A stretch of 44,779 nucleotides of DNA. Source: a virus (Duplodnaviria > Caudoviricetes). The stretch is from IMG/VR virus record IMGVR_UViG_3300046495_000080, positions 1 through 44,779 of that record; one strand, written 5' to 3'. Of this stretch, positions 2,790 to 42,971 are shown in pieces. A model generated the notes under the pieces. It was not told where the DNA came from. It searched no databases and was given only the letters and a program-made list of their open reading frames with translations. Positions within the stretch are counted from its first letter, which is position 1. Each line of letters begins with the position of its first letter. A program made the translations under genes and the position numbers.

Positions 2790-2984
2790 CTACCGGACCT
2801 TCCGCTCGGCGGCGAGGCAGTCGCGGAGGGACTGGATGGCCTCGCCGTGTTCGAGCTGGAAGGTCAGGGCCAGCCGGCGAGCGCGGTCCGCCTTGAGGAG
2901 GGAGGCGAGGAGCCCGCGGGCGGCCTCGAGGGCGGCCATCCGCACCAGCTCGGCGCGGTCGATGCGGAGGACGACGCTAGCCAC
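2790..2984 (-). CDS. Hypothetical helical protein (64 aa)
   Basis: Overlaps the ParB stop; GC3-rich codons. Confidence 0.65.
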   Translation of the reverse strand: MASVVLRIDRAELVRMAALEAARGLLASLLKADRARRLALTFQLEHGEAIQSLRDCLAAERKVR

Positions 2985-4566
2985 GGCGCGCCCCCTTCTT
3001 CTTCGTGGGCTTCGCCGGCTCGGCCGCCGGCGCCTTCGCCTTGGCGGCGAGCTCGGCCTTCACCTCGGCGGTGAGCTGCTTCTCGTTGATGCCGGCGAGC
3101 TCGCGGATCTGGTCGCGCAGCTCGCCGTACCGGAGGTGGACGGAGAGCACCATGGTCAGCGCCAGGGCGCGGAGTTCGGTGCTGTCGAGCTTGGCGAGGA
3201 TCTCGCGGTGGCGCCTCAGCTTCGCGGTGTAGTCCTCCTTCTCCGGCGGCGGGTACAGGTCGTCGAGGACACCGTCGTCCGTCTGGTCGATCTCGGCCGC
3301 GGCCAGGTACCAGGTCCCGGCGTCATTCACGCTCCGGCGGCACGCCTCGAGAAGCTTCGCCACCATCCGCTTGCTGACGGCGTCCTCGAGCGCGCGGGAG
3401 GCCTTCACTTCGACGGAGCTGCTCCTCGCGCGGCTGGGCGACCGCTCCACCTTGAAGTCGTGCCCGGCCGCCTTCAGCAGCTTCGCCGTCGCGGCCTTCG
3501 GGACAAGCTCGTGCACGTTGCCCTGCGCGTCGCGGGCGAGGACGACCTGGTCCTTGGCCACCTTCCCGACGAGCGTCTTCCAGGGCCGGTACTTCGGGTC
3601 GCGGCTGCAGTTCTCGTCGAGCTTCACGTACTCGCTGGCGTAGGAGCAGGCCTTCTTGGCAGCCTTGCCCTCGAGGACCTCGAGCCCCTTCGCCTTCTGC
3701 GCGCTCGCGCGCCGGCTCCAGGTCTCGTCCGCCTTCGCCCGGTAGCAGCTCGGGTCGGTGCAGAGCTCGCCGTCCTGCTTCGAGACGTCGGCGAAGAGTT
3801 CGGGCTGCGCGCCGGACCTCTTCGGGCAGGTCTTGCAGGGCCCGGCGCCGGGTGCGAGCGTCGCGTCGTCCTTCGAGAACGGCGCCTCGGAGAGGCGGAG
3901 CATGTGATTCCGCACCGCCCAGCTCACCTCGTGGCTGCCCCAGGCCTCGTCGTCCCCGCCGCGACCGCTGAGGTCCTTCAGCACCAGGCGCTGCACGCCG
4001 TGGTCGGGGATCCGGGCGACGAGCAGCGCCGAGCTGGCGGTGAACCGGCCCTTGTAGAACGCCGCCCGAGCCTCCTTGCAGAGGGAGAGCAGCTTCATCC
4101 GGCCGTAAACGTAGCCGGTGGACTTGCCCACCTTCGCGGCGAGCTCGTCGACGGAGTACTCGGCCTCACCGGACTGGCGGAGGGCCTCGAACCCCTCCGC
4201 CTCCTCCATCGGGTGGACGTCCTGCCGCTTCGAGTTCTCGACGATCTGGATCTCGAGCGCCTCGGTGGCGCCGAGCTCGCGCACCATGGCGGGGATGGCC
4301 TCGAGGCCGGCGAGCTTCGCGGCGCGGAACCGGCGGGCCCCGAAGACGAGCTCGAGGAGGTTCCCGTTCATCCCCTCCGGCGAGGCGGCCGGGCGGCAGA
4401 GGATGGGCTGCAGCACGCCGCGCTTCTTCAGGTCCTCGGCGAGGTCCTCGATGTCGGTGAAGGTCTTCCGGGGGTTGGTCGGGCTCTCGATGATCCGGGT
4501 GAGCGGGACGAGTTCGACGATGGCGTGGGGGGCGGCCGCAGCGGCCGGGGCGACGAGTCTGGGCAT
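2977..4566 (-). CDS. ParB/Spo0J-family protein
   Basis: NPRK...LAEDLKKRGVLQPIL...FGARRFRAAKLAGL..IPA...ENSKRQDVHPMEEA followed by an HTH (VDELAAKVGKS..YVYGRMKL). Confidence 0.9.
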   Translation of the reverse strand: MPRLVAPAAAAAPHAIVELVPLTRIIESPTNPRKTFTDIEDLAEDLKKRGVLQPILCRPAASPEGMNGNLLELVFGARRFRAAKLAGLEAIPAMVRELGATEALEIQIVENSKRQDVHPMEEAEGFEALRQSGEAEYSVDELAAKVGKSTGYVYGRMKLLSLCKEARAAFYKGRFTASSALLVARIPDHGVQRLVLKDLSGRGGDDEAWGSHEVSWAVRNHMLRLSEAPFSKDDATLAPGAGPCKTCPKRSGAQPELFADVSKQDGELCTDPSCYRAKADETWSRRASAQKAKGLEVLEGKAAKKACSYASEYVKLDENCSRDPKYRPWKTLVGKVAKDQVVLARDAQGNVHELVPKAATAKLLKAAGHDFKVERSPSRARSSSVEVKASRALEDAVSKRMVAKLLEACRRSVNDAGTWYLAAAEIDQTDDGVLDDLYPPPEKEDYTAKLRRHREILAKLDSTELRALALTMVLSVHLRYGELRDQIRELAGINEKQLTAEVKAELAAKAKAPAAEPAKPTKKKGARRG

Positions 4567-6681: not shown

Positions 6682-7107
6682 CTACCTCTCCTTTCGCTTC
6701 ATGGTCAGGGCTTCTGCGGCGCTCATCCGGGACAGTCGCCCGCGGAGCGCCTGCTTCGTGATCCCGAGCCGCGCTGCCCAGTCGGTCTGCGTCATCCGAA
6801 GGCCGGCGTGCTCGAGGTAGACGTTCTGGCGGGTGTTGCGACGCTGCTCCGGAGCGGAGGCCCACCGGCAGTTGCTCGGCTCGTAGCCCCGGTCGTTGTC
6901 GATGCGGTCGAGGCTCGTGCGCGGCGGGCGCTCACCCATGTCGGCGACAAAGTTCTCGAAGGAGCGCCACCGTGCGCACACCGTGATGCCGCGGCCGCCG
7001 TAGTTCTCCCAGGCGTGGTGCCGCTGGCTGGTGCAGCGCTCGACCATGTGCATCCAGGTCCGGTAGGTCGGCGTGCGCGGCGAGGAGTGGCCGTGTCCAG
7101 TGGGCAT
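6682..7107 (-). CDS. HNH-type homing endonuclease (YGGRGI family), paralog of 1193-1657
   Basis: PTYRTW..M..RC...YGGRGITVCARW..FENF..DMGERP...SLDRIDND.GYEPSNCRWA. Confidence 0.85.
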   Translation of the reverse strand: MPTGHGHSSPRTPTYRTWMHMVERCTSQRHHAWENYGGRGITVCARWRSFENFVADMGERPPRTSLDRIDNDRGYEPSNCRWASAPEQRRNTRQNVYLEHAGLRMTQTDWAARLGITKQALRGRLSRMSAAEALTMKRKER

Positions 7108-7528: not shown

Positions 7529-7564
7529 AGCCTAGCGAGTGCTAGATGACGTTGCAAGTGCTAG
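7529..7564 (-). promoter_or_regulatory. PL-like sigma70 promoter overlapped by two operators
   Basis: Minus strand TTGCAA(7557-7552)-17 bp-TAGGCT(7534-7529); operators CTAGCGAGTGCTAG 7532-7545 and GTTGCAAGTGCTAG 7551-7564. Confidence 0.75.
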
Positions 7565-7605: not shown

Positions 7606-7899
7606 CTACTCGACCAACTCGCCGCGGGCTCGAGAGAGTTCCCACGCGGCGGTCGCGAGCTGGCGGTAGCCGGCCGCGACGCGGTTCGAGTACTCCTCGA
7701 CGAGCCCCAGGTCCGCGAAGTCGATGAGCGCTACCGCCGCGCCTATCTCAGCGGCGTGTCGTCGCGACTGGTCGTACTCCGCCTCTCGACGGCGCAGGTC
7801 CTCGAACCGCGACCTGCGAACTTCGGTGGTGCTGCTTCCCCCCGCAGATTCGGGCGCCACGCGCTGCGCGGCGGCTGCGGACCCAGAGCATCGGGCCAT
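7606..7899 (-). CDS. Hypothetical protein in the immunity region (97 aa)
   Basis: Helical C-terminal half with plausible codon usage; start uncertain. Confidence 0.5.
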   Translation of the reverse strand: MARCSGSAAAAQRVAPESAGGSSTTEVRRSRFEDLRRREAEYDQSRRHAAEIGAAVALIDFADLGLVEEYSNRVAAGYRQLATAAWELSRARGELVE

Positions 7900-7986
7900 G
7901 CGGGGACCCTACCTGAATGGGCGGACAGCGGTATCGGATGACCTAAATCAATCAGCGGTTCGCGCTGTGATCACGCGGGGATCCCG

Positions 7987-8376
7987 CTACGGGCAGGCGT
8001 TCCAGTACCGCGCGACATCCGGCTGCAGCTGGACCTCGCGTGCCTCGCGCTCGCATGAGGCAGCGTCCGCACAGCCTCGGCACGCGGCGATGAAGCCGGC
8101 GCGCCGCTCGCGGATCTGGTCGTCCGAGTGAACCCACGTCTCCTCGTCGCGCGAAGAGAGCTTGTCACCGCGCGCCATGCGAAGGTCGAGCATCTTCACG
8201 ACGCTCACGGTGGCAGCGAAGCGCTCGCGCTCCTGCTGTTCCTTCCTGCGCGCGGCGGGGTCTGCCGACCGTTGGGCCAGGACCGAGTCGACGGCAGCGT
8301 CGAGAGCGTCTGGCGGCGGCGCGCGCGGGCGGCAAGCGAGCGCAAAGCCGAGTATCCACCAGGCGCGACGCATCAT
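7987..8376 (-). CDS. Lipoprotein coupled to the repressor; candidate superinfection-exclusion protein
   Basis: MMRRAWWILGFALA-C lipobox; ATGA overlap with the cI stop; four further Cys; DALDAAVDSVLA shared with the ejection protein. Confidence 0.75.
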   Translation of the reverse strand: MMRRAWWILGFALACRPRAPPPDALDAAVDSVLAQRSADPAARRKEQQERERFAATVSVVKMLDLRMARGDKLSSRDEETWVHSDDQIRERRAGFIAACRGCADAASCEREAREVQLQPDVARYWNACP

Positions 8377-8669
8377 CCACCCTTGCCACTGGCGTGGCTC
8401 GGATCCCAGTCGTTCGGGAAGGTGTCGAGCAGGTCATCCGCGCTGCGGTGCAGCTTCCGGTGCATCGCGATCACCAGGTCGAGGCCGGCCGTGCGCTTCG
8501 CGTTGAGCACGTTGGTGATGGTCGGCTCCTTCATGCCGAGCTCGTCGGCAAGCCGCTCGTTCGTCCAGCCCCGCGCGCGCTTGTAGTGCCATAGCCAGGC
8601 GCGGACGTGCTCCCGAGTCTCCTGGTCGACGTTCTCGCGGGGCGGCATTCTGACTGAGACTACGGGCAT
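8373..8669 (-). CDS. CI-like XRE HTH repressor (no C-terminal peptidase domain)
   Basis: RGWTNERLADELGMKEPTITNVLNAKR HTH; divergent from the cro-like gene. Confidence 0.8.
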   Translation of the reverse strand: MPVVSVRMPPRENVDQETREHVRAWLWHYKRARGWTNERLADELGMKEPTITNVLNAKRTAGLDLVIAMHRKLHRSADDLLDTFPNDWDPSHASGKGG

Positions 8670-8693: not shown

Positions 8694-8721
8694 CTTGCGA
8701 GTGCTACCTAGCGAGTGCTAG
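8694..8721. promoter_or_regulatory. Two tandem operators between cI and cro
   Basis: CTTGCGAGTGCTAC 8694-8707 and CTAGCGAGTGCTAG 8708-8721, the latter identical to 7532-7545; CTAGC-N4-GCTAG symmetry. Confidence 0.8.
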
Positions 8722-8731
8722 GAAGGAGGCC

Positions 8732-8962
8732 ATGAACGGACGCGCGAAGCTCCGCCGGTTCCTCAAGCAGCACGGGCTCACGCAGGAGGCCTTCGCCGAG
8801 AAGGCGCACGTTCCCGGCCCACAGGTCTCGCTCTGGCTCTCCGGGAAGCGGCGCCCCGGGCCCGACTCCATCGCGAAGCTCCGCGACGCCACCGGCGGCG
8901 AGATCACGTTCGACGACTGGGTTCGCCGCGGTGGTCGCGGCACGTCGGGCGACCTGGCCTAG
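8732..8962 (+). CDS. Cro-like HTH regulator (76 aa)
   Basis: RBS AAGGAGG; LTQEAFAEKAHVPGPQVSLWLSGKRRPG...ATGGEITFDDW. Confidence 0.85.
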   Translation: MNGRAKLRRFLKQHGLTQEAFAEKAHVPGPQVSLWLSGKRRPGPDSIAKLRDATGGEITFDDWVRRGGRGTSGDLA

Positions 8963-9699: not shown

Positions 9700-10110
9700 A
9701 TGCGCGACCACCTGCCGACTCCCCTGGCCATCTTCCTCGCCGGCGCGCTGGCCGCCGGCCTGGTGTCGAGCTGCTCGCCAGCGCCGGCTCGGCCGCGGCT
9801 CCTTGGCGCCGAGCTGCTCGACCAGGTCGACGAGCTCGAGGTCCGGCTGCTTCACGGCCGCGAGCTCGTGGCGCGCGACCAGGCGCTGGCCTTCCTCAAC
9901 GACCCGGCGCTCGCGCTGGGCCTGCCCCCGGCGCGGGGGGCTGCAGGACCAACGGGGAGCGCGCCTTCCCCCGCTGGTAGGTCCGAGTCCACGAACCGGG
10001 ACCAGGGCGCAGGCCTGAAGAGCCTGGCTGCTCTGCCCAACCACAACCTCCTGCCCGGTGCGGCCGCGGACCTCGGCCGCGCCGGTCGTTCACCTCGAGG
10101 TGGCCGCTGA
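9700..10110 (+). CDS. Hypothetical exported protein or lipoprotein
   Basis: Hydrophobic N-terminus ending LVSS-C. Confidence 0.55.
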   Translation: MRDHLPTPLAIFLAGALAAGLVSSCSPAPARPRLLGAELLDQVDELEVRLLHGRELVARDQALAFLNDPALALGLPPARGAAGPTGSAPSPAGRSESTNRDQGAGLKSLAALPNHNLLPGAAADLGRAGRSPRGGR

Positions 10111-13027: not shown

Positions 13028-13275
13028 GCGAGTCCGTGCGCCTGGCCACGCGGACTCCGCGCGAGGACCTCCAGGAGACCATCGTCGGCCAGCTGGAGCG
13101 CCTGCTCGAGCGGGCGCGGCGCGGCGAGCTGGAGTCGTTCGCCGCGATGTACGAGACCTCGGACTTCGAGGGGATGAACTGGATTGGCGGCTCGACGCTG
13201 AGCCGGTCCCAGACCATCGGCCGCTTCGAGATTCTGAAGGCGCGGCTCATCCACGAGCTGCTGGAGGGCGAGTGA
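13024..13275 (+). CDS. Hypothetical protein (83 aa)
   Basis: GTGA overlaps; LERLLERARRGELESFAA pattern. Confidence 0.7.
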   Translation: MSESVRLATRTPREDLQETIVGQLERLLERARRGELESFAAMYETSDFEGMNWIGGSTLSRSQTIGRFEILKARLIHELLEGE

Positions 13276-14315: not shown

Positions 14316-14347
14316 GGGGCGTACCCTTCGCGTGGGAGGGGTACGCC

Positions 14348-25582: not shown

Positions 25583-26064
25583 CGACCGTCCGGATCGTCT
25601 CCGCCACGCGCGAGCTCGCCGCCGAGCTCGCCCCGCACGTCCGGCCCGACGAGGTCGCCGAGGTGCTGGCCATGGACGGCGCCACGCCGCTTGAGGCGCT
25701 GCTCGCCGGGCTCGAGCTCTCCGACCCGGTCCGGGCCGCGCTGTTCGACGGCGAAGTGGCGGCGATCTGGGGCGTGGTGCCGGGCGGAAAGAGCGTCCTG
25801 CGCGGCCGGGTGGGCGTCGCGTGGATGCTCACGTCGGCCGCGGTGGAGCGCCATCCCAAGGCCTTCTGGCGCGGCTGCCGCGCCGAGCTGCCGAAGCTCT
25901 TCGAGCGGTACGACACGCTCGCCAACGCCATCGACGCCCGGCATCGGAAGGCCCTCGGCTGGGCATGCCGACTCGGCTTCCAGCTCGGGCAGCCGGCGCC
26001 GATGGGGATCGCCGCTCTGCCGTTCGCGCGCTTCATCGTGCGCAAGGAGGACCTCCGTGTGTGA
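25579..26064 (+). CDS. GNAT-fold internal virion/assembly protein (T7 gp13-like)
   Basis: R.DEV.E...GVAWMLTS...N.ID..H..A..W..RLGF; conserved position. Confidence 0.8.
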   Translation: MTTVRIVSATRELAAELAPHVRPDEVAEVLAMDGATPLEALLAGLELSDPVRAALFDGEVAAIWGVVPGGKSVLRGRVGVAWMLTSAAVERHPKAFWRGCRAELPKLFERYDTLANAIDARHRKALGWACRLGFQLGQPAPMGIAALPFARFIVRKEDLRV

Positions 26065-26533
26065 GCCCGTCACGATCAGCCTCATGGTGGCGTCGGCGGG
26101 GTCGGCGGGGATCGCCGCGTACAGCGCCTACCAGCAGGGCCAGGCCCAGAAGCAGCAGGCGCAGGCCAACCAGGACATCTCGCGGGCGCAGACCGCCGAC
26201 GCGCTGCAGCGCGGCGCGGAGGGCGCCGGTGACGCGCGCTCGCAGGGCACGCAGGTCCTGGGCGCCCAGCGGGCCGCCACCGCGGCGAACGGGGTGAGCC
26301 TCGACTCGACGGGTTCGCGGAACCTCTTCGACTCCACCCAGACCAACAGCGAATACGACGCCGGCCTCGCCCGCGCGAACGCCGCGCGCGAGGCCTGGGG
26401 CCACCAGGTCGAGACCGAGAACTTCCGCCTGCAGAAGGACTACGCCCGCCGCTCCTCGGTCCTCGGGCCGCTCGCCGCGGTCATCGGCGGCGCCTCGCGG
26501 ATCGCCGGCTTCGGCTACCAGGCGACGGGGTAA
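26057..26533 (+). CDS. Ejection protein (T7 gp14-like)
   Basis: MCEPVT start, hydrophobic ends, G.QRA..AANGV. Confidence 0.8.
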   Translation: MCEPVTISLMVASAGSAGIAAYSAYQQGQAQKQQAQANQDISRAQTADALQRGAEGAGDARSQGTQVLGAQRAATAANGVSLDSTGSRNLFDSTQTNSEYDAGLARANAAREAWGHQVETENFRLQKDYARRSSVLGPLAAVIGGASRIAGFGYQATG

Positions 26534-26536
26534 CGC

Positions 26537-28408
26537 GTGCCCAGCCCGACCATCCCGATCCCCAGCTACCGCCGAACCGAGCAGCTCGCGCCGCTTCCGG
26601 GCGAGCGCGCCGTGGTGCGCCCTGACGACTCGCTCTCGGCGGTCGGCCAGGCCGTGGGGCAGGCCGGCGACGTCGCCCAGGGCATCTACCTGAAGGAGAA
26701 GAAGGACACCCAGGACGCCCAGATCGCCGACGCGTACAAGCAGCTCGCCGAGCAGCGCATCGCGATCGAGGGGAAGTACCGCGCGCTGAAGGGCTCCGAC
26801 GCCCTCGAGACGGACGTGACCAGCGCCGCTGCGCAGGAGGTGGAGAAGGCGGCGGGGGACATCTCCGCGAACGTCCTCAAGGACGACCGCACGCGGGCGG
26901 TCTTCAGACAGCGTTTCGCCGACCCGGCCAGCATCGGCGTCCGGGACGCGATCGCCGGTCACGTGGCTCAGCAGAACGACGTCTTCAAGGCTCAGTCCTG
27001 GGCAGGCGCGCGGGCCGTGTCCGTCGACCTGGGCGTGCAGGCCGTGGGCGCGGCGCCGGCGGGCGCGGCCGCCGACTCGAAGGAGCTCACCGCGGCGCGG
27101 GACGGCGTCCTCTCCGCGGTCACTATGCAGACGAAGCAGATGCCCCCGGAGGCGCAGGCGGCGGAGCGCACCGCGGCGCTCACCGACCTGCACGCCAAGG
27201 CGCTCGACCGGCTCCTCGCCGACCAGCGCCCGGCGGACGCGGAGCGCTACCTCACCCGGTGGCGAGGCGAAATGGACCCCACCGCGGTGGGGAAGGCCGA
27301 CGCTGCCCTGCGGCAGACCTCCCAGGGTGCGGCCGTCGAAGCGAAGGCCACCTCGATCATGAAGGACGCCTCGATCACCGGGTACACCTGGAAGGACCCG
27401 GCCAAGGCGCTCGCCGCGGTGGAGGCGATCCCGGACGACGACCCGACGAAGCCCCACGTGCGTCAGCTGGTGGAGCAGCAGGTCTCGAAGGCAGAGCAGC
27501 TCCGAACGCTCGCCGGGAAGGAGCAGCTGAACCTCGCCCAGTCGCTGCTCTCGAAGGGCGCTCCGCTCGAGGGTGCGGCCATCGCGCCGATCAAGGCCTG
27601 GATGCTCGACCCGGCGAACGGCGCGGCCGGGCTCTGGGAGGTGCTGCAGCGGAACGACGCCGCCGAGGCGCGGGCCGCCCGGGCGGCGAACGCGACGGAC
27701 CGAGCCGCCGCCGCGGCGCGCCGCGAGCAGGCGGAGGCCGACAAGCTGGCCGTCGAGACGTACCGCTCGCTCGATCTGAAGGGCTCGGACGGCCAGGACC
27801 AGCTCACCATCGACCTCGCCCAGGCGTTCCCCGACGTGAGCCCCACGGGCAGGGCGCTGCTGCAGATCGAGAAGAAGAAGGCCGAGAAGGAGTGGGGGAA
27901 GGACCAGGGTCGCTCGAGGACGCAGTTCCTCGACCAGGTCACGAACGTCGCGACCGCCTTCAAGTACGCGAAGGGCGCGAAGGGGAAGTCCGGGGATTTC
28001 GAGCAGTTCAGCTCCTACATGCTCGACCAGCTCGGGCAGTGGCAGGAGGCGAACCCAACGAAGCCCGCTCCCACCCAGCCGGACGTCGACGGGATGATCC
28101 TCAACGCCGTCTCGAAGTGGGAGAGCGGGAGCACCTTCACCGCGAACAAGGAGCACTGGAAGCTCGCCCGCGCGCGCTCGCTCGGCGACAGCGCCCACGT
28201 GCTCCCGGACACGGAGCAGCCGGACGCGGTGAAGGCGCTGCGCGGGCCGGCCCCGGCGCCCGGCGCGTCGCCCGCCACCGCTGCGGCCCCGGGCGGCATC
28301 CCGGCGGACGTGCGGAAGGCACTCGTCGAGAAGTTCAAGAGCCGGGGCGTGGATCCCACCGACGAGCAGCTCGCCGCGGCCTACGCGCGCCTGCAGGGGG
28401 GCCAGTAG
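26537..28408 (+). CDS. Ejection protein (T7 gp15-like), helical
   Basis: MP..IP.Y start, Ala-rich helical content, position between gp14-like and gp16-like genes. Confidence 0.7.
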   Translation: MPSPTIPIPSYRRTEQLAPLPGERAVVRPDDSLSAVGQAVGQAGDVAQGIYLKEKKDTQDAQIADAYKQLAEQRIAIEGKYRALKGSDALETDVTSAAAQEVEKAAGDISANVLKDDRTRAVFRQRFADPASIGVRDAIAGHVAQQNDVFKAQSWAGARAVSVDLGVQAVGAAPAGAAADSKELTAARDGVLSAVTMQTKQMPPEAQAAERTAALTDLHAKALDRLLADQRPADAERYLTRWRGEMDPTAVGKADAALRQTSQGAAVEAKATSIMKDASITGYTWKDPAKALAAVEAIPDDDPTKPHVRQLVEQQVSKAEQLRTLAGKEQLNLAQSLLSKGAPLEGAAIAPIKAWMLDPANGAAGLWEVLQRNDAAEARAARAANATDRAAAAARREQAEADKLAVETYRSLDLKGSDGQDQLTIDLAQAFPDVSPTGRALLQIEKKKAEKEWGKDQGRSRTQFLDQVTNVATAFKYAKGAKGKSGDFEQFSSYMLDQLGQWQEANPTKPAPTQPDVDGMILNAVSKWESGSTFTANKEHWKLARARSLGDSAHVLPDTEQPDAVKALRGPAPAPGASPATAAAPGGIPADVRKALVEKFKSRGVDPTDEQLAAAYARLQGGQ

Positions 28409-31400
28409 ATGGCCGACGCCCTCGACGCCGCGGTGGACGAGGTCCTCGCCCGGCAGCCGGCCGCCGGCGAGCTCGGCGTGACGGAGCCCGTGCCGGCCCG
28501 CCCTCTCGCCGCGGGGGAGACCCTCCACCTGGTCCGGGCCGGAGCGGACGTCGCGCCGCCGGCGCCGCCGCCCGGCCCTGATCCGCTCGACGCGGCGGTC
28601 GACTCGGTCCTGGCCCCGCCGGCCCAGGGCGACCTCCCGGAGGTGCAGGCCCTCAGGCGCCAAGCGAAGGGCGTCGCCGCGGCACGCGAGGCCGTCGCGG
28701 CCACCTACGGACGCGCCAGCTACACTCCCACGGCCGAGGATCTCGCGGCCGAACAGGCCGTGGCGGCAGGCGGCGACGTCGAGCGCGGGCTCGCCTACCA
28801 CCGGCTCCTCGCCGACCACACCGAGCTGAACCTCGAGCAGCAGGCGCAAGCCAAGCAGCTCACCGCGGCGACCGGGCTGCCCGCCGACCTGGTCGTCAGG
28901 AACCTCCCAGCGCTCTGGAAGCGCTTCAGCGCCCAGCGGACCGACGCCCAGCTCCAGGCCCTCATCGCCGCGCACCCGGCCCTGAAGGAGGACCTCGCCA
29001 CCGATCCGGCCATGTACCGGCAGGTCCGGGACGCCTCGGCCGACGTCACCGACTGGCTGCACTACGTCGTCGGCCACCAGGAGCCGATGAAGACAGCCGC
29101 CGAAGCGGCGAAGGACCCGAACGCGCCGGAGTGGGTGAAGGAGACCGCGAAGCAGTTCCCCGACATGCTCCTGCCGGACTACCGGCAGGGCGTGGTCGGC
29201 GCGTACGTGCGCGACAAGTGGACGAAGGACGTCCCGCTCCAAGCGCGGAAGACGGCGCAGGCGGAGACGGCGGCGCCGCACGGCCTCTTCGACAACCCGA
29301 ACCTCTCTCCGTTCGAAGTGGACACCCTCCGCGAGGAGGCCGGGCAGGCTCCGCTCGCCGCGCCGCCCCGGCCCGGGATGGTTGCGCCCTCGGAGCCCGC
29401 CTTCCCGGACTGGCGCGCCGAGAACGCGGCGAAGATCGCTGAGCTCGAGAAGGAGACCACGGGGGCGAAGGACTACGGTCCCCTCTCGCGGCGTCTGATG
29501 GGCAAGGTGCTGACCGCTCCGGCGAGGATGTCCGACGTGCTCGTGGGTAACGCTCTGGCGGCCGCGGCCGGGCCCCAGGGCGTCTTCATGTTCAACTGGG
29601 GCTACGGCTACGGCCCCCTCGCCTACGACCTGCAGCAGCAGAAGGGCCCGGACGGGAAGCCCGTCGACCCTGCCAGCGCGAATCGGATCGCCGGTGGCGC
29701 GTCGGCGCTGGGCGCCGCGGCCTTCTCCGTCCCGATCGTGAAGATCGGCGGTCGCCTCCTCACCGGCGCAGAGCAGCGCGTGCTTGGACAGGCCACCGCT
29801 GAGGCCACGGAGCGCGCCCTCGCGATCCCGGCGGTCTCGCAGCTGCTACTCCGCACCGCGAAGGCCTCCGGCGAGGAGTACGCCGGTGGCATGCTGGGGA
29901 TGGTCTCCCAGGCCATCGCGGAGGAGGGTGGGCGGCAGCTAAACGCTGGGACGTTCGACCCCGCCAAATTCGCGGAGACCGTGCAGGCGACGGCGAAGCA
30001 GGCAGCAGCGGACCTGCTCCTGCTCTCCGCGGGCGGCGCGGCCCACACGGTGGTACGCGACGTCGCCGCGCGGCAAGCCGCGCTCCGGAGCCAGGTGGCG
30101 CTGCGCGGCGTCGCGACGCCTGGGACGAAGCTGTCCCAGGTCCTCGAGGCGGCGCCGGACGGGGGCCGGGAGCTCCTCGTCCGGCTCGCGCAGAGCAGCC
30201 GGGTGGAGTCTCCGGATGCGGTCACGGCCATCCACCAAGACCTCGCCCAGTGGGACGCCTACTGGACGGCGCAGAAGCTCGACCCGCGCGCGGCCGCGGC
30301 AACGGCGATGAGGGACGGCGGGAAGGCGTACGACCAGGCCAAGGCGGAGCACGCCACCCGCCTCGAGATCCCGGTCGCGGACTGGACCGCCACCTTCGGC
30401 GTCGGGGAGAACGCGAAGCACGGCCAGGCGCTCCTCGAGGACGCCGCCACCGCGGCGACCGTGAACACCCCGCGCCAGCAGATGGCGCAGGCCGAGGCCG
30501 ACCAGGCCCGTGCCGCCGAGCTCGCCAAGCTCGAGCCCGACAAGATGGAGGCGGACCACCGGGCGGTCTTCGAGGAGTACCGCCGGCAGGCGCTCGAGGC
30601 GGACGAGACCGACGCCGAGGCCACCTCCAACGCGAAGATCGCGGCGGCCGGCTACAAGGCGTTCGCCGAGCGCGCGGGGCGGGGCGAGAGCGCCTGGGAC
30701 CTGTGGCAGGCGTACCCGATGCGGATCATCCGCGGGGAGGGCAGCGTGGGGCCTGGCGCGAGCCAGCCCTCCCAGGGCGAGCGGCTGGCGCAGATCGATG
30801 CGCGGCTCTCGGAGATCACGCCGGCGACCGCCGCGCGCGACCTCACGACGAAGTACCTCACCTCGAGCCCCGAGCAGCAGGCCGAGATCTACTACCGCGA
30901 CCCGAAGACGGGCCTCCTCAACGACCGGGGTCTGTGGGATGCGCCCCCCGACCCCGAGCGGCCGCTCCTCGCCCAGGTGCAGATCTCGGGGAAGAAGCTC
31001 GCCAACGACAAGGCGGGCCACGAGGCCCTCGACCGCATTTTCCGCGCCGTGGGGCGCGAGCTCGTCGACGCCGGCGGCGACCACGTCGCGAAGGCGGGCG
31101 GGGACCTCTACCTGCGCGTGAAGGACCAGGCCGAGCTCGACCGCGTCATGGGGGTAGTTCGGGCGAAGCTCCCGCAGTGGGTGGAGCTCTCCGCTGGACT
31201 GGGGGACCGGAAGGCGGCCCTCCGCGAGACGATCGACGGCATCAACGCCGTGCACAACCCCGTGGTGGAGAAGCGGCGCGCCGCCGGCACGTTCGCGCAG
31301 CGGGAGGGCTACCCGGCTGCGTTCACGGGCAAGAAGGCCGCGAAGGCCTACGCGAAGGCGATCTCCGAGCTTCCCGACGGCAACGCCGCGGTGCCGCTCA

Positions 31401-34400
31401 CGGCCGCGCTGCGCGAGAGCCACGCCGCCCTCGAGCCGCGTGCGGCGGCCGAGACGGCCTTCCGGACGGCGGGCGGGCTCCTCACCGAGACCGCCTGGCA
31501 CGAGATGCGCCAGCCCGGCCGGGCGAAGCGGTGGGTCGCCTCGATGGACCTGCGCTCCATCAAGAGGATGAACGAGGCGCTCGGGGTGGACGCAACGGAC
31601 GCGGTCCTCCTGGCCATCGAGCGGAAGATGGGCGAGATCGGCGGCGCCGCGGTCGACGCGGCCCACCGGTCCGGTGACGAATTCGCATGGCAGCACGACG
31701 ACTTGCAGGCTCTACACGCGTACGGCTTGCGCCTTCGCGACGTGGGTAGGATGATGTCCTACACGGTGACCGACCCGGTCACCGGAGAGCGAAAGACCCT
31801 CCGCGGGGTAGAGTTCGCGATCGGGGAAGGGAAGACCTTCGATGAAGCCGACGGACCTAAGCTCAAGGCCGACAAGCGAAGCCTCGACACCGAGCTCGGC
31901 GCCGGCTGGTTCGAGCGACGCCTCACCCCTGGAGAACCTGGTGACGGTGGACGACCTGGCAGCGGCGGTGGAGAAGCATCCGGGCCGGTTCAGGGTCGAG
32001 GAGATCAAGTTCGGGAACGAGGTGGTCTGGAGCCGGGACAAGGCCCCGCCCAAGACTTCCCCGGCCTCGGCCCCGACCGAGTCGAAGAAGTAAGGGCCCT
32101 CCTCCGGGAGCGCGCCGCGCTCACCGGGGCGGTGGAGCTGAAACAGGGCTCCCGCATCGCCGACATCGATGGCGAGCAGCTCGTCTTCCACCAGGACGGC
32201 GAACGCGGCTTCATCCGCTTCCCGAAGGTCCTCGCCGAGGGGCAGCCGGTCGCCCTCGATCTGCACCTGCTCAACAGCGACAAGAGCACCCTCGCGCACG
32301 AGACCTTCCACGGGCTCTCGGTGGTGCTCGGCCAGCTCGCGACGCGCCCCGACGCGCCCGCTGGGCTCCGCGCTGACTACCAGGGCCTCCTCGAGGCGAT
32401 GGGGTACCAGGACCACGCCGAGCGCCTCTCCGCGCGCGACGCGGCCAAGGAGGAGCGCGCCAGCCACCTCTGGGAGATGTACCTCGCCGAGGGGCGGGCG
32501 CCGTCGAAGGAGCTCCGGCCGGCCTTCACCCGCTTCAAGGGGTGGATGCAGAAGATCTACGGCGGCCTCCTCGGGATCTCCGACCAGTACGAGAAGCGCT
32601 TCGGGAAGCCCCTCGAGCTCTCCGACGACGTCCGGCGGATCTTCGACCGCATGCTCGCCGCCGACGACCAGGTCGACCGGGCGCGCGCCGAGATCGAGCC
32701 CGCGGCGGCCCCGGCTGACGTCGGCGAGATGCCGCCGGCCGACCAGGCCGAGTACCAGCGCCTCGACCAGGAGGACCGCGAGGTCTCGCGCGAGGAGCTC
32801 GTCCGGCGCGCGGCCGAGGACGACCAGAGCGAGGCGCGCAAGGCGGCCGCGGCGGAGGCGCAGCGGATCCGTGGCCAGGTGGAGGTGGACGTCGCCGCCG
32901 GCGACGAGGGGCACCGCGCGCTCGCGCACCTGCAGCGCGGGGAGATCCCCGGCCAGCCGGACCCGATGGGCGTCCTCAAGGACGACGAGGGCCACCCGGT
33001 GAAGCTCGACCGGAAGAGCCTGGTGCGGGAGATCGGGGCGGAGGCCGTCGCGGCGCTTCCCCGCGGCATCTTCGCGAAGCCGGACGAGGGCGGCATGGCC
33101 GCCGGCGAGGTGGCGCTGCGCCTCGCCTTCCCGAACGCGGAGGCGTTGCTCGACGCGATCCGGGGGAAGGACTTCGACGCCGCGGTGAAGGACGAGGTCG
33201 GCCGGCGGGTGGACGAGAAGTTTGGTCCGGCGCTGCTCGACGACCCCGCGCGGGCGCCGGCGGCCGCCCAGGCGGCGCTCGCCACCGAGGCGGGGGCGAA
33301 GAAGCTCATGCTCCGGCTGGCTGCCATCGCGCGCGCCCTGGGTCCCGAGGCGGAGCGGCGGGTCCGCGGGATGAGCCTGCCCGCGATGCACGACCAGGCG
33401 CGCGAGCTCCTCCAGGGCACCCCGATCCGTCAGGTCTCGGCGGACCGGTACATGAACATGGAGGCCGCGGCACACGACCGGGCCACCGAGGCGTGGAAGG
33501 CGGGGAAGCGGGACCAGGCGCTCCAGGAGGTCGAGGCCGCGGTCTGGAACCACGTCTTCGCCCGCGCCGCGCGCGACGTACGCGACCTGGTCGACCGCGC
33601 CGAGCAGCGCGTCCGGGGCACCCGGGGCGACGCCTGGCGCGCCGCGCTCGGGAAGGCGTCGCCGGCGTACCGCGACGGCCACGACGCGATCCTAGCCGGC
33701 GTGAAGATGGGGCACGCCCGTCCGGACGCCGCCGGCGACGTGCAGAAGCTGCTCCTGCAGCTCGTCTCGGACGCCTCCGGGACCGTGGTGAACGGCGAGG
33801 TGGTCCCGGACGGCGGCTGGGACCCTCAGGGCGTCCGGGAGCTCGCGGCGAAGCCGAGGGCGTGGTCGGAGCTCACGCCCGAGGAGGCGCTCAACGTCGC
33901 CGACGCGGTGGCCAACATCCGCCACCACGCGAACGACCTCAACGAGATCACCACCGCGGGGAAGCGGCTCGACCGGGAGATGACCATCGACGAGGGGATC
34001 GCCGCCCTCGAGAAGAACCTCCCGAAGCAGCCGAAGATCCAGGACGACCCGCTGCTCGACCAGCTGAAGCGCAACCCGCTGCGCCTCGCCGGCCAGGCCG
34101 CGGACGCGCTCGAGCTCGACATCAAGACCTACGCCCACCTCATGGATGGCGGGGACCGGGACGGCATCTTCCACCAGCTCTTCATCGATCGGCGCCTCGT
34201 CGCGCGGGACAAGCGCAACGCGCTCACCCGGCGCTTTCTCGAGGACCTCCTCCCGAAGTTCGAGAAGAGCGGCCTCGACCGCGCCCGCCTCACGGAGGCG
34301 ATCGACGTCTCGGCCGACCTGCCCCTCGACGCGCGCCTGGCGGAGCTCCGCGAGGGCAAGCTCCGCACCAGGTCGAACCTCCTGATGATGCTCCTCAACC

Positions 34401-36262
34401 TCGGGAACGACTCGAACGCCGAGCGCTTCCTGGGAGGCTACAAGTGGACCCGCGAGCAGGTCCTCGGAGCGCTCTCGAAGCACCTCAACGGCAAGGAGCT
34501 CCGCTGGGTGAACGACGTCTGGGCCGCGCTCGAGAAGGGCGGGGCGAAGGAGGGCGAGCAGTCCCTCTACCAGGAGATGGCGAAGCTGCACGAGGATGAG
34601 GAGGGGATCGCGCCCGAGAAGATCAAGGCGAAGCCCTTCACCATGAAGTCCTCCGACGGCGAGCTCGTCGAGATGACCGGCGGCTACTTCCCGGCCCGGT
34701 ACGACCCGCGCCCCGGCGCCGAGCGGCGCACCGGAGAGAAGCAGGTCGCGGCGGACGTCGCCTCCTTCTTCCAGCAGAACTACACGCGCGCGCCGTCGGT
34801 CGCGAGCCCGCACGCGAAGAAGCGCGCCGCCCACTTCGAGGACCTGGTCAACCTGAACTGGGGCATCGTCCCGGCGCACGTCTCGCAGGTGATCCATGAC
34901 ATCGCCTACCGGCGGTTCGTGAAGGAGACGGCGGCGCTCCTCCTCAACGACCGGATGGACAACGCCCTCACGCAGCACCTGGGCGTGGTGCGAGTGAAGA
35001 CGCTCCGGTCCTGGCTCCGGGCCGTCGCGAACGCCCGCGCGGACTCCCTGCCGGAGCACCTCGAGTTCACGGGCCAGCTCATGTCGGGCCTGAAGAGCGG
35101 CGCCGCGAAGGCCGCGCTCGGCTTCTCGGTGCCGCGTGCGATCTCGGACGTCGTTTCCGACCCGGCCATCGCAGTGGCGACCGGCCACATCCGGCCTGAC
35201 TACATGGCGAAGGCCTCCGCGAAGGTGCTCACGCCCGCCCGCTGGCGGGAGGCGCGTGACTGGGTCGTCGCGAACATCCCCGAGGTCCGGGACCGCTCGG
35301 AGAACCTCCGCAGCGAGATGAACAAGGCACTCGGCAAGATGGGCGGGCGGCAGGTGCTGCAGAACCCGACGCTTCGCGCGGTCCGCGACTCCGCCTTCAT
35401 CACCATGGAGCTGGGCGACGCGCTCATCAGCACGCCGATGGCCCTCGCCAAGTACCAGCAGGCCCTCGACGGCTATCGCGCGGAGGGCCGCGCCGCCGAC
35501 GAGGCGCACCGCCTCGCCGTGCGCGACGCCGGGGACATGATCCGGGAGGTGATGCCGCCGCACGACATCGCCGACAAGCCCGCCCTCATCCGCGACCACC
35601 AGGTGCTCGGGGCGCTCCTGCTCTTCCACGGCCACGCCAACAAGATCGGCGGCGTCCTTCGCCGGCGCGGCGCCGACGTCGCCCGGGCGTTCCGATCTAG
35701 CGAGTCGAGCATCGGCGACAAGGCGGCGCCGGTGGCGAAGCTCATGGGGACGGTCGTCGGGCTCGCCATCGCCAACGGGATCTACGCCGAGTACTTCGCC
35801 GGCCGCGGAAAGACGGAGGACGAGACCTACGAGCAGTGGGTGGCCCGGAAGAGCATCGGCGCCGTCCTCTACCCGGTGCCCTTTCTGAACGGCCCCCTCG
35901 AGGCGCTCGTTTCGAAGTGGATCACCGGGGAGACGAAGCCGGTCTCGATCCGCGGGGCGCCAGGCTTCGACTTCGCGATGCGCACCCTCAAGAAGATCGG
36001 GGAGGGCGTCTCGAAGTGGTTCGACGGTGACGGCGACGCCGGGCTGGCAGCGCAGCAGGCCGCGGAGACGCTCCTCGGCATCGCCGCCGGCGCGCCCACC
36101 CGGCAGGCCCACGACACCACCGAGTACGTGCGCCAGCTCGCCTCGGGGGAGGCGGACGCCCGAGGGCCGCTCGACGTCCTGGGCGGCCTCATCTACGGCA
36201 ACGACCCGCGGAACGGCGCCAACCCGCTCACCGACCTCCAGTCCATCTTCTCAGGAGACTGA
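28409..36262 (+). CDS. Large ejection/polyvalent protein (2617 aa) with tandem GGDEF domains and an HExxH domain
   Basis: gp16-like position; DPKTGLLN...K.AND..GH...D...GGDLY; DL..IK.MN...G....D...RSGDEF; LAHETFH...EE.A...E.YL.EG.AP; GGYFPARYDP. Confidence 0.88.
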   Translation: MADALDAAVDEVLARQPAAGELGVTEPVPARPLAAGETLHLVRAGADVAPPAPPPGPDPLDAAVDSVLAPPAQGDLPEVQALRRQAKGVAAAREAVAATYGRASYTPTAEDLAAEQAVAAGGDVERGLAYHRLLADHTELNLEQQAQAKQLTAATGLPADLVVRNLPALWKRFSAQRTDAQLQALIAAHPALKEDLATDPAMYRQVRDASADVTDWLHYVVGHQEPMKTAAEAAKDPNAPEWVKETAKQFPDMLLPDYRQGVVGAYVRDKWTKDVPLQARKTAQAETAAPHGLFDNPNLSPFEVDTLREEAGQAPLAAPPRPGMVAPSEPAFPDWRAENAAKIAELEKETTGAKDYGPLSRRLMGKVLTAPARMSDVLVGNALAAAAGPQGVFMFNWGYGYGPLAYDLQQQKGPDGKPVDPASANRIAGGASALGAAAFSVPIVKIGGRLLTGAEQRVLGQATAEATERALAIPAVSQLLLRTAKASGEEYAGGMLGMVSQAIAEEGGRQLNAGTFDPAKFAETVQATAKQAAADLLLLSAGGAAHTVVRDVAARQAALRSQVALRGVATPGTKLSQVLEAAPDGGRELLVRLAQSSRVESPDAVTAIHQDLAQWDAYWTAQKLDPRAAAATAMRDGGKAYDQAKAEHATRLEIPVADWTATFGVGENAKHGQALLEDAATAATVNTPRQQMAQAEADQARAAELAKLEPDKMEADHRAVFEEYRRQALEADETDAEATSNAKIAAAGYKAFAERAGRGESAWDLWQAYPMRIIRGEGSVGPGASQPSQGERLAQIDARLSEITPATAARDLTTKYLTSSPEQQAEIYYRDPKTGLLNDRGLWDAPPDPERPLLAQVQISGKKLANDKAGHEALDRIFRAVGRELVDAGGDHVAKAGGDLYLRVKDQAELDRVMGVVRAKLPQWVELSAGLGDRKAALRETIDGINAVHNPVVEKRRAAGTFAQREGYPAAFTGKKAAKAYAKAISELPDGNAAVPLTAALRESHAALEPRAAAETAFRTAGGLLTETAWHEMRQPGRAKRWVASMDLRSIKRMNEALGVDATDAVLLAIERKMGEIGGAAVDAAHRSGDEFAWQHDDLQALHAYGLRLRDVGRMMSYTVTDPVTGERKTLRGVEFAIGEGKTFDEADGPKLKADKRSLDTELGAGWFERRLTPGEPGDGGRPGSGGGEASGPVQGRGDQVRERGGLEPGQGPAQDFPGLGPDRVEEVRALLRERAALTGAVELKQGSRIADIDGEQLVFHQDGERGFIRFPKVLAEGQPVALDLHLLNSDKSTLAHETFHGLSVVLGQLATRPDAPAGLRADYQGLLEAMGYQDHAERLSARDAAKEERASHLWEMYLAEGRAPSKELRPAFTRFKGWMQKIYGGLLGISDQYEKRFGKPLELSDDVRRIFDRMLAADDQVDRARAEIEPAAAPADVGEMPPADQAEYQRLDQEDREVSREELVRRAAEDDQSEARKAAAAEAQRIRGQVEVDVAAGDEGHRALAHLQRGEIPGQPDPMGVLKDDEGHPVKLDRKSLVREIGAEAVAALPRGIFAKPDEGGMAAGEVALRLAFPNAEALLDAIRGKDFDAAVKDEVGRRVDEKFGPALLDDPARAPAAAQAALATEAGAKKLMLRLAAIARALGPEAERRVRGMSLPAMHDQARELLQGTPIRQVSADRYMNMEAAAHDRATEAWKAGKRDQALQEVEAAVWNHVFARAARDVRDLVDRAEQRVRGTRGDAWRAALGKASPAYRDGHDAILAGVKMGHARPDAAGDVQKLLLQLVSDASGTVVNGEVVPDGGWDPQGVRELAAKPRAWSELTPEEALNVADAVANIRHHANDLNEITTAGKRLDREMTIDEGIAALEKNLPKQPKIQDDPLLDQLKRNPLRLAGQAADALELDIKTYAHLMDGGDRDGIFHQLFIDRRLVARDKRNALTRRFLEDLLPKFEKSGLDRARLTEAIDVSADLPLDARLAELREGKLRTRSNLLMMLLNLGNDSNAERFLGGYKWTREQVLGALSKHLNGKELRWVNDVWAALEKGGAKEGEQSLYQEMAKLHEDEEGIAPEKIKAKPFTMKSSDGELVEMTGGYFPARYDPRPGAERRTGEKQVAADVASFFQQNYTRAPSVASPHAKKRAAHFEDLVNLNWGIVPAHVSQVIHDIAYRRFVKETAALLLNDRMDNALTQHLGVVRVKTLRSWLRAVANARADSLPEHLEFTGQLMSGLKSGAAKAALGFSVPRAISDVVSDPAIAVATGHIRPDYMAKASAKVLTPARWREARDWVVANIPEVRDRSENLRSEMNKALGKMGGRQVLQNPTLRAVRDSAFITMELGDALISTPMALAKYQQALDGYRAEGRAADEAHRLAVRDAGDMIREVMPPHDIADKPALIRDHQVLGALLLFHGHANKIGGVLRRRGADVARAFRSSESSIGDKAAPVAKLMGTVVGLAIANGIYAEYFAGRGKTEDETYEQWVARKSIGAVLYPVPFLNGPLEALVSKWITGETKPVSIRGAPGFDFAMRTLKKIGEGVSKWFDGDGDAGLAAQQAAETLLGIAAGAPTRQAHDTTEYVRQLASGEADARGPLDVLGGLIYGNDPRNGANPLTDLQSIFSGD
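31842..32093 (+). CDS. Nested out-of-frame small protein (83 aa) inside the ejection gene
   Basis: Purine-rich GGAAGGGAAG before ATG; GC3-rich codons switch to this frame while the host frame reads as G/R/P-rich linker. Confidence 0.6.
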   Translation: MKPTDLSSRPTSEASTPSSAPAGSSDASPLENLVTVDDLAAAVEKHPGRFRVEEIKFGNEVVWSRDKAPPKTSPASAPTESKK

Positions 36263-41035: not shown

Positions 41036-41539
41036 CTACATGTGTCGCCAGGTGGTCCGCTTCACGATGCGCTGGACCGTCATGGCGTCGAGTCCGAACT
41101 CGCGCGCGAGCGAGCGGATCGAGTCCGGCTGCCGGCCGGGTCCCTGCTCTCTCCCGGGCCGAACCCTGGACCGGATCTCCGCCACGATCGCTTCCGTGAC
41201 CTTCGCGGCGTAGTGCCGTTCGCCCCTAGCCGAGTTGAGCGCCGGACCTCGCGCCTGGCGCCCCTTCGTCACCTTATCGGACATGTTGTCGGCGCAGGTC
41301 CCCAGGAACAGGTGCGCGACGTTCACGCACGCCGGCTGATCGCACCGGTGCAGGACCTGGAGCCCGGAGGGGATCGGGCCGTCCACCATCTCCCATGCCA
41401 GCCGGTGGACGGTACGCGTGTGGCCCTCGATCCCGAGCTGCCCGTACCCCTTCGCGTCTACTGAGCCTGCCCAGAACCAGCAGCCGGAGTTCGGCTCCGG
41501 CGAGACTTTGGCCCAGAATCGCTGCTCCCACTCGCGCAT
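41036..41539 (-). CDS. HNH homing endonuclease (HNH_3-like) with C-terminal HTH
   Basis: RFWAKV...GCWFWAG...GYG...HRLAW...VLHRCDQPACVNVAHLFLGT..DN..D. Confidence 0.9.
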   Translation of the reverse strand: MREWEQRFWAKVSPEPNSGCWFWAGSVDAKGYGQLGIEGHTRTVHRLAWEMVDGPIPSGLQVLHRCDQPACVNVAHLFLGTCADNMSDKVTKGRQARGPALNSARGERHYAAKVTEAIVAEIRSRVRPGREQGPGRQPDSIRSLAREFGLDAMTVQRIVKRTTWRHM

Positions 41540-42693
41540 GGCGTGACCGTAGCGCAGGAGGCCGACAGGTCCACGGCCAGCGTCGAGCGCGCCGCGTCCG
41601 AGAAGTGGCCCGGCACCAGGTGGGCGTACCGCTCGGTGTCGGTGATGGAGGCGTGCCCCAGGATCGCCTGCAGCTCGCGCAGCGAGCCCCCCGCCATGGC
41701 CCACTGGCTCGCGAAGGTGTGGCGCGTCGCCTGGTACCAGGGCTTCGGCTCGAGCGGCGGGAGCTTGAGGTCGACGAGCACGGGGCGGAGGCGCCCCGCC
41801 GGCGTCCGCTTGTCGACGTGCTCGCCGTCGCAGCGAAGCGGCGGGATGACCAGGCCGCGCCCGCCCGAGGAGAGCTTCCAGGCCTTCAGGATCGGGAGCA
41901 GCGGATCGAGGATCGGGACGGGGCGCGGCTCGCGGTCCTTGGTGCGCCCCTTCACCGACTCGGAGACCAGCATCCGGCGGCCCTCGAGGTCGACCGAGGT
42001 CCAGCGCAGCGCGAACACCTCGCCGGTGCGCAGCCCGCCGAGCGCGCCGATCGCGTAGGCGACGTTCAGCGGCTCTTCGAGGGCGAGGAAGATGCGACGC
42101 ACGTCCTCGAGCTGCTCGACGAAGGCGGTAGTGCGCGGGTCGTGGTCGGGCCGGAGGAGGCGAAGGATGCTCTTCGGCAGATGGCGGGCCGGGTTCCGGG
42201 TCGCGAGGTGGCGCTCGAGGAGATCCTCGTACAGCGAGGAGAGGAGCGAGACGCAGACCCGGAGCGACGCCGGCGACTGCTTCCCGTCGAGCGGCTGGCC
42301 GGGCACGCGGAGGACGTACTTCGATCGCCTGTGCTGCTCCACGAAGGTGCGCACCAGCGAGTCGTCGAGCTCGTCGGGCCGGAGGTGACCGAAGGCAGGC
42401 CCGAGGTACTTGTTCCAGCGCTGGCGATCCTCGGGGCCGTTCGCGTGGGTCTCGAGTCGCCGCTTGAGCCACTCGGGCGCGAGCTCGCCGAGCGTTGGGG
42501 TGAGGCGCGGGTCGGCGGCGACGCCCAGGCGGCGGTTCATCGCCTCGGAGCGGAGCACCACCAGGCGGGCCTCGGCCTCGGCGCGCGTGCGGAAACCGGT
42601 CTCGTACCTCTTCGACTCGTGCGGCCCGTAGCGGATGGAGAAGACGGCGCCTTCGCGGAAGACCGATCCTGAGCCTCTGGGGCGTCGCTTCAT
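41458..42693 (-). CDS. int: Tyrosine integrase (411 aa)
   Basis: RRPRGSGSV arm-binding start; GLRTGE, TK, YQATRHTFAS, LGH, TERY; RBS GGAGG. Confidence 0.93.
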   Translation of the reverse strand: MKRRPRGSGSVFREGAVFSIRYGPHESKRYETGFRTRAEAEARLVVLRSEAMNRRLGVAADPRLTPTLGELAPEWLKRRLETHANGPEDRQRWNKYLGPAFGHLRPDELDDSLVRTFVEQHRRSKYVLRVPGQPLDGKQSPASLRVCVSLLSSLYEDLLERHLATRNPARHLPKSILRLLRPDHDPRTTAFVEQLEDVRRIFLALEEPLNVAYAIGALGGLRTGEVFALRWTSVDLEGRRMLVSESVKGRTKDREPRPVPILDPLLPILKAWKLSSGGRGLVIPPLRCDGEHVDKRTPAGRLRPVLVDLKLPPLEPKPWYQATRHTFASQWAMAGGSLRELQAILGHASITDTERYAHLVPGHFSDAARSTLAVDLSASCATVTPCASGSSDSGPKSRRSRTPAAGSGQAQ

Positions 42694-42716
42694 GGCGGAC
42701 CTCCGGGCGCGAGACC

Positions 42717-42971
42717 CTAGTCCTGCTCGGTCCCGTCGGGCAACACGACGTAGCGAAGCCCTCCAATCGGCACGACTTTCAGCTGCCCGTCCTTGATCCA
42801 GCGATTGACGCTGCGGACGGTCACCCCGAGGCGCCGCGCCGCCTCCGGAATGGGGACGGGGGTGCGGCCCTGCTCGCCCTGCAGCCGGCGGATCTCCTCG
42901 CGCAGCGGCTCCATCGCGCGGCGGATGGTCGCCTCGAGCTCCTCCGTCGTCATCACCAGCGCGACGCCCAT
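42717..42971 (-). CDS. xis: Excisionase
   Basis: IPEAARRLGVTVRSVNRWIKDGQL; directly upstream of int. Confidence 0.8.
   Translation of the reverse strand: MGVALVMTTEELEATIRRAMEPLREEIRRLQGEQGRTPVPIPEAARRLGVTVRSVNRWIKDGQLKVVPIGGLRYVVLPDGTEQD

Follow-up and report, generated by a model that had tools for sequence, protein, structure and literature searches.

Here, we describe a predicted lipoprotein of a temperate phage that carries a copy of a 12-residue motif (the tag) from the N-terminus of the phage's own giant ejection protein. The tag copy is real and lies beyond chance, and it would represent a variant of the known injection exclusions if its function holds. The window, by which we mean the whole 44,779-nt stretch analysed (IMGVR_UViG_3300046495_000080), is the complete genome of a short-tailed, temperate phage whose structural module is epsilon15/BPP-1-like. 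It has a 142-nt terminal repeat and a G+C content of 72%, and the phage is carried by peat metagenomes.

PHROG profiles identify terminase, portal, capsid, tail tube, nozzle and three internal-protein genes, and the portals of epsilon15 and phiV10 are 37% identical to that of the window. The ejection module of an epsilon15/BPP-1-like podophage is present in order and with homology, as nozzle, gp14-like, gp15-like and giant gp16-like genes with profile matches to PHROG 376, 418, 10475 and 9880. A tyrosine integrase (41458..42720, minus strand; PF00589 over cut-off) marks a temperate life style, and our guess from G+C content and habitat is that the host belongs to the Myxococcota. Also found were a ParB-like protein alongside the integrase, plus two HNH endonuclease genes (2977-4566, 6682-7107, 41036-41560; PHROG search), a tail fibre/spike gene (36265-38493) that opens with a signal-peptide-like stretch, an exact 27-nt direct repeat with 32-nt spacing (13870-13928) in the ORF at 13272-14111, and, at 11577 in a putative replication gene, a 17-nt repeat spaced by 11 nt.

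The shared motif

The tag copy in the lipoprotein (aa 23-34; 8275..8310, minus strand) reads DALDAAVDSVLA, has a net charge of -3 and is amphipathic. The gp16-like protein holds the tag twice, at aa 3-14 (copy 1; 28415..28450, plus strand) and aa 58-69 (copy 2; 28580..28615, plus strand), each 11/12 identical to lipoprotein aa 23-34, and a proline run precedes both copy 2 and the lipoprotein copy. An earlier sequence-only reading of this DNA had reported this doubled 11/12 motif, with coordinates and residues that proved right. Among 1035 pairs drawn from 46 phage proteins, a match of 11/12 occurs once, between the lipoprotein and the gp16-like protein, and the next 16 pairs stand at 8/12. Shuffles of the lipoprotein compared with the gp16-like protein never reached 11, whether the whole sequence (0/1500, maximum 9) or local 14-aa blocks (0/1500, maximum 10) were shuffled. 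The 11/12 likeness of this low-complexity motif (A, D, L, V) therefore exceeds chance at the protein level.

As far as the contigs go, the likeness is not an assembly artefact: a 32.3-kb contig from run X2, possibly the source run of the record, contains both tag copies with zero differences, and in runs X3 and X4 the lipoprotein motif is spanned by short contigs for which no substitutions are listed. Candidate phage variants in small-share sequencing runs were rejected because they proved to be this phage at low coverage, the examined run contigs gave no recognisable integration joint, and in both runs contig depth steps down past about 36,000.

At the DNA level, an exact 19-nt match (8274-8292 versus 28598-28616) lies inside a 40-nt, 85% inverted match. 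This identity had been read as a sign of capture, an argument that fails, since 19-mers are ordinary here and synonymous identity is at the level of codon bias. The genome has three exact 19-nt repeats, and repeats of at least 19 nt arose in 1/12, 4/12 and 5/12 runs of Markov-simulated genomes (orders 2, 4 and 5, respectively). Eight of the 12 amino-acid-identical codons shared by the lipoprotein and copy 2 are codon-identical versus 6.8 expected from codon usage (P=0.33), and 6/11 are identical to copy 1 versus 6.5 expected, a comparison that rests on 12 codons and has little power. Because the 19-mer is ordinary and synonymous identity is as codon bias predicts, the likeness is one at the protein level, and codon identity at chance level leaves no trace of recent copying. 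Conserved residues alongside seemingly randomised synonymous sites fit either an ancient capture followed by selection or selection-driven convergence.

Lipoprotein and immunity region

The lipoprotein gene (7987..8376, minus strand, running from 8376 to 7987) encodes 129 aa, comprising a signal (aa 1-14), Cys15, a proline linker, the tag helix (aa 22-37) and a conserved helical core with four cysteines (aa 40-129). A bacterial lipoprotein pattern is found at Cys15, with a basic N-region, a hydrophobic stretch and a lipobox cysteine, and lipidation is predicted; we take the lipobox-type pattern applied to be the PROSITE rule. In the portions of one source drawn on here (PMC3222651), the strict lipobox has Leu at -3, where the window lipoprotein has Ala, and Lys at +2 is common in inner-membrane lipoproteins of M. 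xanthus; the +2 residue of the window lipoprotein is Arg. AlphaFold2 (AF2) places helices at residues 22-37, 40-68, 75-99, 105-115 and 119-126 (mean pLDDT 72, about 56-63 in the tag region), so that the tag is modelled as a separate, low-confidence helix preceding a confident core. 

Family searches with the lipoprotein gave no match in PHROG, NCBIfam or PADLOC and a lone Pfam match at E 0.058, far under the cut-off. No profile match to SieA, Ltp, Cor or Rex was found in Pfam, PHROGs, NCBIfam and PADLOC, libraries that may not model each of these families. Foldseek against PDB and BFVD returned nothing at E<=0.001, and the best VIA-align Z was 5.8, to generic helical hairpins. Database searches yielded three homologs on contigs of 0.7-1.7 kb, namely P0002, which is 63% identical over the core, P0008, and P0006, a C-terminal fragment. 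P0002 and P0008 have lipoprotein-type signals ending in Gly-Cys, and the tag is absent from both of these full-length homologs, which show a gap or a very short or unrelated Pro-rich linker at the tag stretch. Given that both lack the tag, even though P0002 is 63% identical in the core, the basic function of the family is independent of the tag, and the same absence, together with the position of the tag as a separate helix ahead of the core, points to an addition to an older scaffold. No lipoprotein relatives were found in viral contigs, and 1 of 48 phage records has a weak partial match (E 0.004). Matches in L002 and L003 (genome and metagenome contigs) fall outside a matching gene and were rejected, as was P0007, a repeat-protein artefact. 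Two further predicted lipoproteins in the rightward arm (9700-10110 and 14312-14686) are both without the tag.

The start of the lipoprotein gene overlaps the stop of a cI-like repressor gene (8373..8669, minus strand; start possibly 8648) in an ATGA, an overlap already pointed out in the sequence-only reading. The repressor matches Pfam HTH_3 (E 7.5e-7) and PHROG transcription regulators, has an HTH alone with no peptidase domain detected, and is divergent from a second, cro-like HTH gene (8732..8962, plus strand; Pfam HTH_3, E 6e-10); we infer its identity as cI from position. A right operator-like pair (8694..8721, as 8694-8707 and 8708-8721) sits between the divergent HTH genes, and a left pair is found at 7532..7564 (7532-7545 and 7551-7564). 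Both are matches to a 14-nt pattern with 4 genome matches at <=2 mismatches versus 0.31 expected (0/100 shuffles reach 4), a pattern derived from the very sites that it scores. A terminator-like hairpin (7953..7967, minus strand) comes directly after the lipoprotein, 20 nt later; with 1 found versus 0.7 expected in shuffles it is weak alone, and its position fits. Between the operator-like pairs thus lie the repressor, the overlapping lipoprotein gene and the terminator-like hairpin, and this operator-repressor-lipoprotein-terminator order is one that we take to be the lambda cI-rex layout. Such a layout makes expression of the lipoprotein in lysogens likely. No sigma-70 promoter was found, a result that is uninformative given 72% G+C, and codon usage is poorer in the alternative frames that overlap at the locus.

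A 97-aa ORF without a family (7606-7899, minus strand) lies between the terminator-like hairpin and the left operator pair; its codon adaptation is low, and it may not be a gene. In related temperate phages the envelope-gene slot behind the repressor varies, with differing small exported or membrane genes in L106 (G012), L114 (G016), L117 (G019), L138 (G039) and L008 (31511-31726). Inspection of 16 such sites by eye showed several relatives with other small exported or membrane genes in this slot and no tag evident in them.

The tag in ejection proteins

The giant gp16-like ejection protein (28409..36262, plus strand; 2617 aa) is BPP-1 Bbp10-like, matching phrog_9880 (E 9e-143) and, by tblastn, BPP-1 Bbp10, AF gp16, HU1 and others, with the matches to these three named proteins in its C-terminal half. 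BPP-1 Bbp10 itself opens with two copies very like the tag. A sample of N-termini was assembled from 80 nozzle-containing viral loci, 51 of which have two large downstream genes; after 3 mis-picked starts and 6 near-duplicates were dropped, and 6 GenBank and 2 database proteins were added, 50 N-termini remained. With the exact motif, 4/50 N-termini beat 95% of their own internal windows, BPP-1 being first, and a looser pattern, composed post hoc with the sequences in view, matches 8/48 N-termini (3 of them twice) versus 5/876 internal windows. Helix variants of the NPYL or YD-LL type are visible by eye, unscored, at other gp16-like N-termini, and a de novo Gibbs sampler, in which the lipoprotein was not scored, gave a weak result that did not recover the tag motif cleanly. 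Of the 2617 residues, the copied 12 are the sole doubled N-terminal element that recurs in the family. The suggestion that the motif is a docking element is borne out insofar as it behaves like a docking tag, recurring, often doubled, at gp16-like N-termini.

Searches of viral contigs for close relatives of the giant protein or the portal found none or one distant relative, and ESM Atlas gave nothing beyond leads under 0.9. Two tandem GGDEF-like stretches lie at about aa 820-1170 of the giant protein (30869-31918), with matches (Pfam, E 1e-4; NCBIfam, E 1e-6 to 4e-5) that fall short of the curated cut-offs, and this region is seemingly missing from the closest homolog, P0004. Phage polyvalent proteins with GGDEF domains are described in the consulted part of PMC5512222.

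Upstream of the giant gene lie a gp14-like internal virion protein gene (26057..26533, plus strand; phrog_418 internal virion protein, E 1e-30) and, between the two, a gene for a 623-aa gp15-like ejection protein (26537..28408, plus strand; phrog_10475, E 1e-12), the role of which is deduced from synteny. The gp15-like stop (TAG) abuts the gp16-like start in frame (28406-28411), where most relatives have a 4-nt overlap instead. Behind a Pro/Ala linker, the gp15-like protein ends in a two-helix hairpin (aa 588-623; 28298..28405, plus strand) that recurs in related phages and is a candidate tag receptor. The sequence-only reading had listed the gp15-like protein among several possible partners, and a candidate can now be named, the C-terminal hairpin, which co-varies with the tag. 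AF2 models it as two helices (mean pLDDT 80), and a 35-aa terminal element occurs in 28/48 gp15-like proteins, a partly circular count because the profile was built from 25 of them. A PDB sequence search with the hairpin gave nothing convincing.

In 23 phages, selected by eye because they possess the hairpin and compared in non-independent pairs, hairpin similarity is correlated with that of gp16 aa 1-32 once gene-body similarity is removed (partial Mantel r 0.345, p 0.0005). The correlation falls to 0.14, 0.07 and -0.02 for gp16 aa 33-64, 65-96 and 97-128, respectively, and for aa 1-32 stays at r 0.335 with both flanking blocks controlled; gp16 aa 1-32 correlates more weakly with upstream gp15 blocks (r 0.15-0.19). 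The coding sequences of hairpin and tag lie side by side, so linkage can contribute to the co-variation, and in the window's own row the hairpin-tag correlation is not significant (rho 0.18, p 0.43). Complex prediction with the mature lipoprotein (aa 15-129, 4-row alignment) and a 47-aa hairpin (25 rows) scored 0.26 and 0.29 versus a mark of 0.32, and we give it no weight in either direction. In T7, the N-terminal part of gp16 is periplasmic and stabilises the gp15 C-terminus, according to the portions of PMC8954989 cited here, and the T7 and Ar-KM cores have 8 gp15-like per 4 gp16-like subunits in what was available of two preprints (bioRxiv 10.64898/2026.02.16.706137, 10.64898/2026.05.18.726046). 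Two tags per gp16 would suit this 8:4 gp15:gp16 ratio, if a T7-type ratio applies to the window's family.

The copy among relatives

No second copy of a phage's own gp16 N-terminus (first 90 residues) was found in 23 valid IMG/VR records, the best reaching 6-8/12; these are the records with a correct gp16 start out of 24, 12 of which have an integrase, three of which were read to 40 kb only and several of which are incomplete. The whole gp16-like protein likewise has no copy in the remainder of 7 GenBank phages (best 7-9/12). In a cross-phage test of ORFs with a hydrophobic start the window ranks first (z 4.4); own exported ORFs rank first in 1/30 relatives, which is chance level and involves a non-tag word, and the tag pattern occurs in 0/69 lipobox ORFs. 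A DNA pattern for the motif had one viral-contig match, rejected as antisense to a tail-fibre gene. A secreted ORF with a tag-like word in G004 was set aside, as it is near the integrase and the word is inside another protein body, presumably one of HdeA/Rap1a type. Co-conservation of the motif in relatives, on which the sequence-only reading had staked its proposal, is not what was found: P0002 and P0008 are without it and no copy occurs in the 30 related phages, which are distant and without the window's lipoprotein.

Proposed mechanism and alternatives

We lean somewhat towards a reading in which a lysogen-made periplasmic decoy caps the gp15 hairpin and aborts DNA entry of kin phages; binding, expression and exclusion are steps that we infer. 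The lipoprotein would likely be produced together with the repressor in lysogens and would hold the tag off the membrane, in the periplasm, on its short proline linker. The tag would be a docking helix for the gp15 hairpin, and the displayed copy could cap the gp15 hairpin of a kin phage on its way in, while the ejection proteins refold. The gp15-gp16 junction could then not re-form, and gp16 would remain unattached and the DNA outside. The scaffold of the lipoprotein probably predates the tag, which would have been gained in the window's lineage and kept by selection on the protein. This decoy reading is supported by the copy itself, its excess over chance, the layout of the locus, the repeated appearance of both tag and hairpin across the family, and the statistical link between the two. 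The T7 contact between gp16 and the gp15 C-terminus and the escape from P22 SieA through ejection proteins also speak for it. Of the decoy exclusion first proposed from the sequence, the docking tag, a nameable partner and the operator-bounded immunity position stand; capture from the 19-nt identity and co-conservation do not. A more general form of the idea, that in BPP-1-like podophages the gp15 hairpin and the doubled gp16 helix tag are a lock-and-key pair, and that this prophage attached its own key to a lipoprotein unrelated to them, giving a self-matched, reprogrammable decoy with 12-residue specificity, seems to us evenly poised between right and wrong.

It is unlikely, in our judgement, that the tag has no role on a protein whose core works alone and possibly excludes by another route, having been left behind by an ancient capture within the genome or being an acidic amphipathic helix that converged on the motif by chance. 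Homologs without the tag, the lack of a parallel in 30 relatives, the tolerance of linker regions for insertions, the low-complexity composition and the existence of the 40-nt, 85% DNA match are all consistent with such a remnant. Pure chance, however, is excluded by the shuffles (about 1 in 1500 per null) and the gap between 8/12 and 11/12, and a random capture would be unlikely to pick exactly the family's N-terminal tag. A neutral recent copy would also keep synonymous identity and a neutral old copy would lose residues, and neither is seen, in small numbers of codons.

Quite unlikely is a second alternative, in which tag and copy bind a host envelope protein, or a virion part of the gp14 or nozzle type, that gp16 needs for membrane entry, with the lipoprotein excluding by occupation of that factor instead of the gp15 hairpin. 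It accounts equally well for the common motif and the lysogenic position, direct evidence does not name the partner, and gp16 aa 1-32 also correlates with the upstream gp15 blocks; against it, phages that share the tag have unrelated hosts, and the co-variation of the tag is strongest with the hairpin of the same phage. About as unlikely, finally, is that the lipoprotein binds its own phage's ejected gp15 and caps or clears the spent channel after the first infection with no exclusion of later phages, since, although identical binding would be expected and expression would begin early, as lysogeny is set up, most relatives do without such a copy, constant expression from the repressor operon suits defence, and envelope genes behind repressors vary from phage to phage.

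Relation to known systems

A full-text search, which took in few subscription papers, found no published description of exclusion through a copy of a phage's own ejection-protein motif. If the decoy reading is true, a prophage can make exclusion from one helix borrowed from its own virion, and a docking pair would order the assembly of ejection proteins in a large family whose giant ejection proteins lack solved structures. Because the decoy and its probable target are both identified by the 12-residue copy, the mechanism is testable with two peptides.

The proposed contact resembles the T7 junction, where the N-terminal part of gp16 binds the C-terminal region of gp15 in the periplasm; the T7 junction differs in using a transglycosylase domain together with an extended tape (aa 157-228), and the portions of that account cited here describe no short doubled tag or terminal hairpin (PMC8954989). 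HXS, which is bacterial, blocks entry in the periplasm by a different mechanism, as far as the cited part of its description goes (PMC13128918). According to the relevant sections of Leavitt et al. 2024 (PMC10883804), P22 SieA blocks DNA injection, with escape mutations in the ejection proteins gp16 and gp20; it is integral to the inner membrane, with three transmembrane segments predicted, and has no evident signal. Like SieA, the window protein would be a prophage envelope protein of a short-tailed phage for which an injection block is proposed; unlike SieA, it is a predicted lipoprotein, coupled to the repressor and carrying a tag copy, and ejection-protein mimicry is not given for SieA in those sections (PMC10883804). 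SieA is the one studied injection block for short-tailed phages and has no defined binding site. Its topology is not that of the lipoprotein, in which the signal alone is hydrophobic and the remainder is a charged helical domain.

TP-J34 Ltp is a lipoprotein encoded in the lysogeny module. The window protein is likewise a prophage product encoded near lysogeny genes and predicted to be membrane-anchored, and Ltp acts on the DNA-conduit protein of kin phages, its injection block being overcome by tape-measure changes in the account given in part of PMC10883804. Ltp differs in its Gram-positive host, long-tailed phage and tape-measure target, and has no family match to the window lipoprotein. 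To our knowledge, Ltp is not known as a mimic. Cor proteins are also small prophage lipoproteins that give exclusion, which they do through inactivation of the FhuA receptor (work cited in the consulted sections of PMC10883804). Unlike the protein proposed here, Cor acts on a host receptor at adsorption, and there is no sequence match between the two. The lambda rexAB genes, which mediate abortive infection, lie between cI and the left operator and are co-transcribed with cI, with a terminator at the end. No sequence likeness to RexAB was found for the lipoprotein gene, which shares the position of rexAB.
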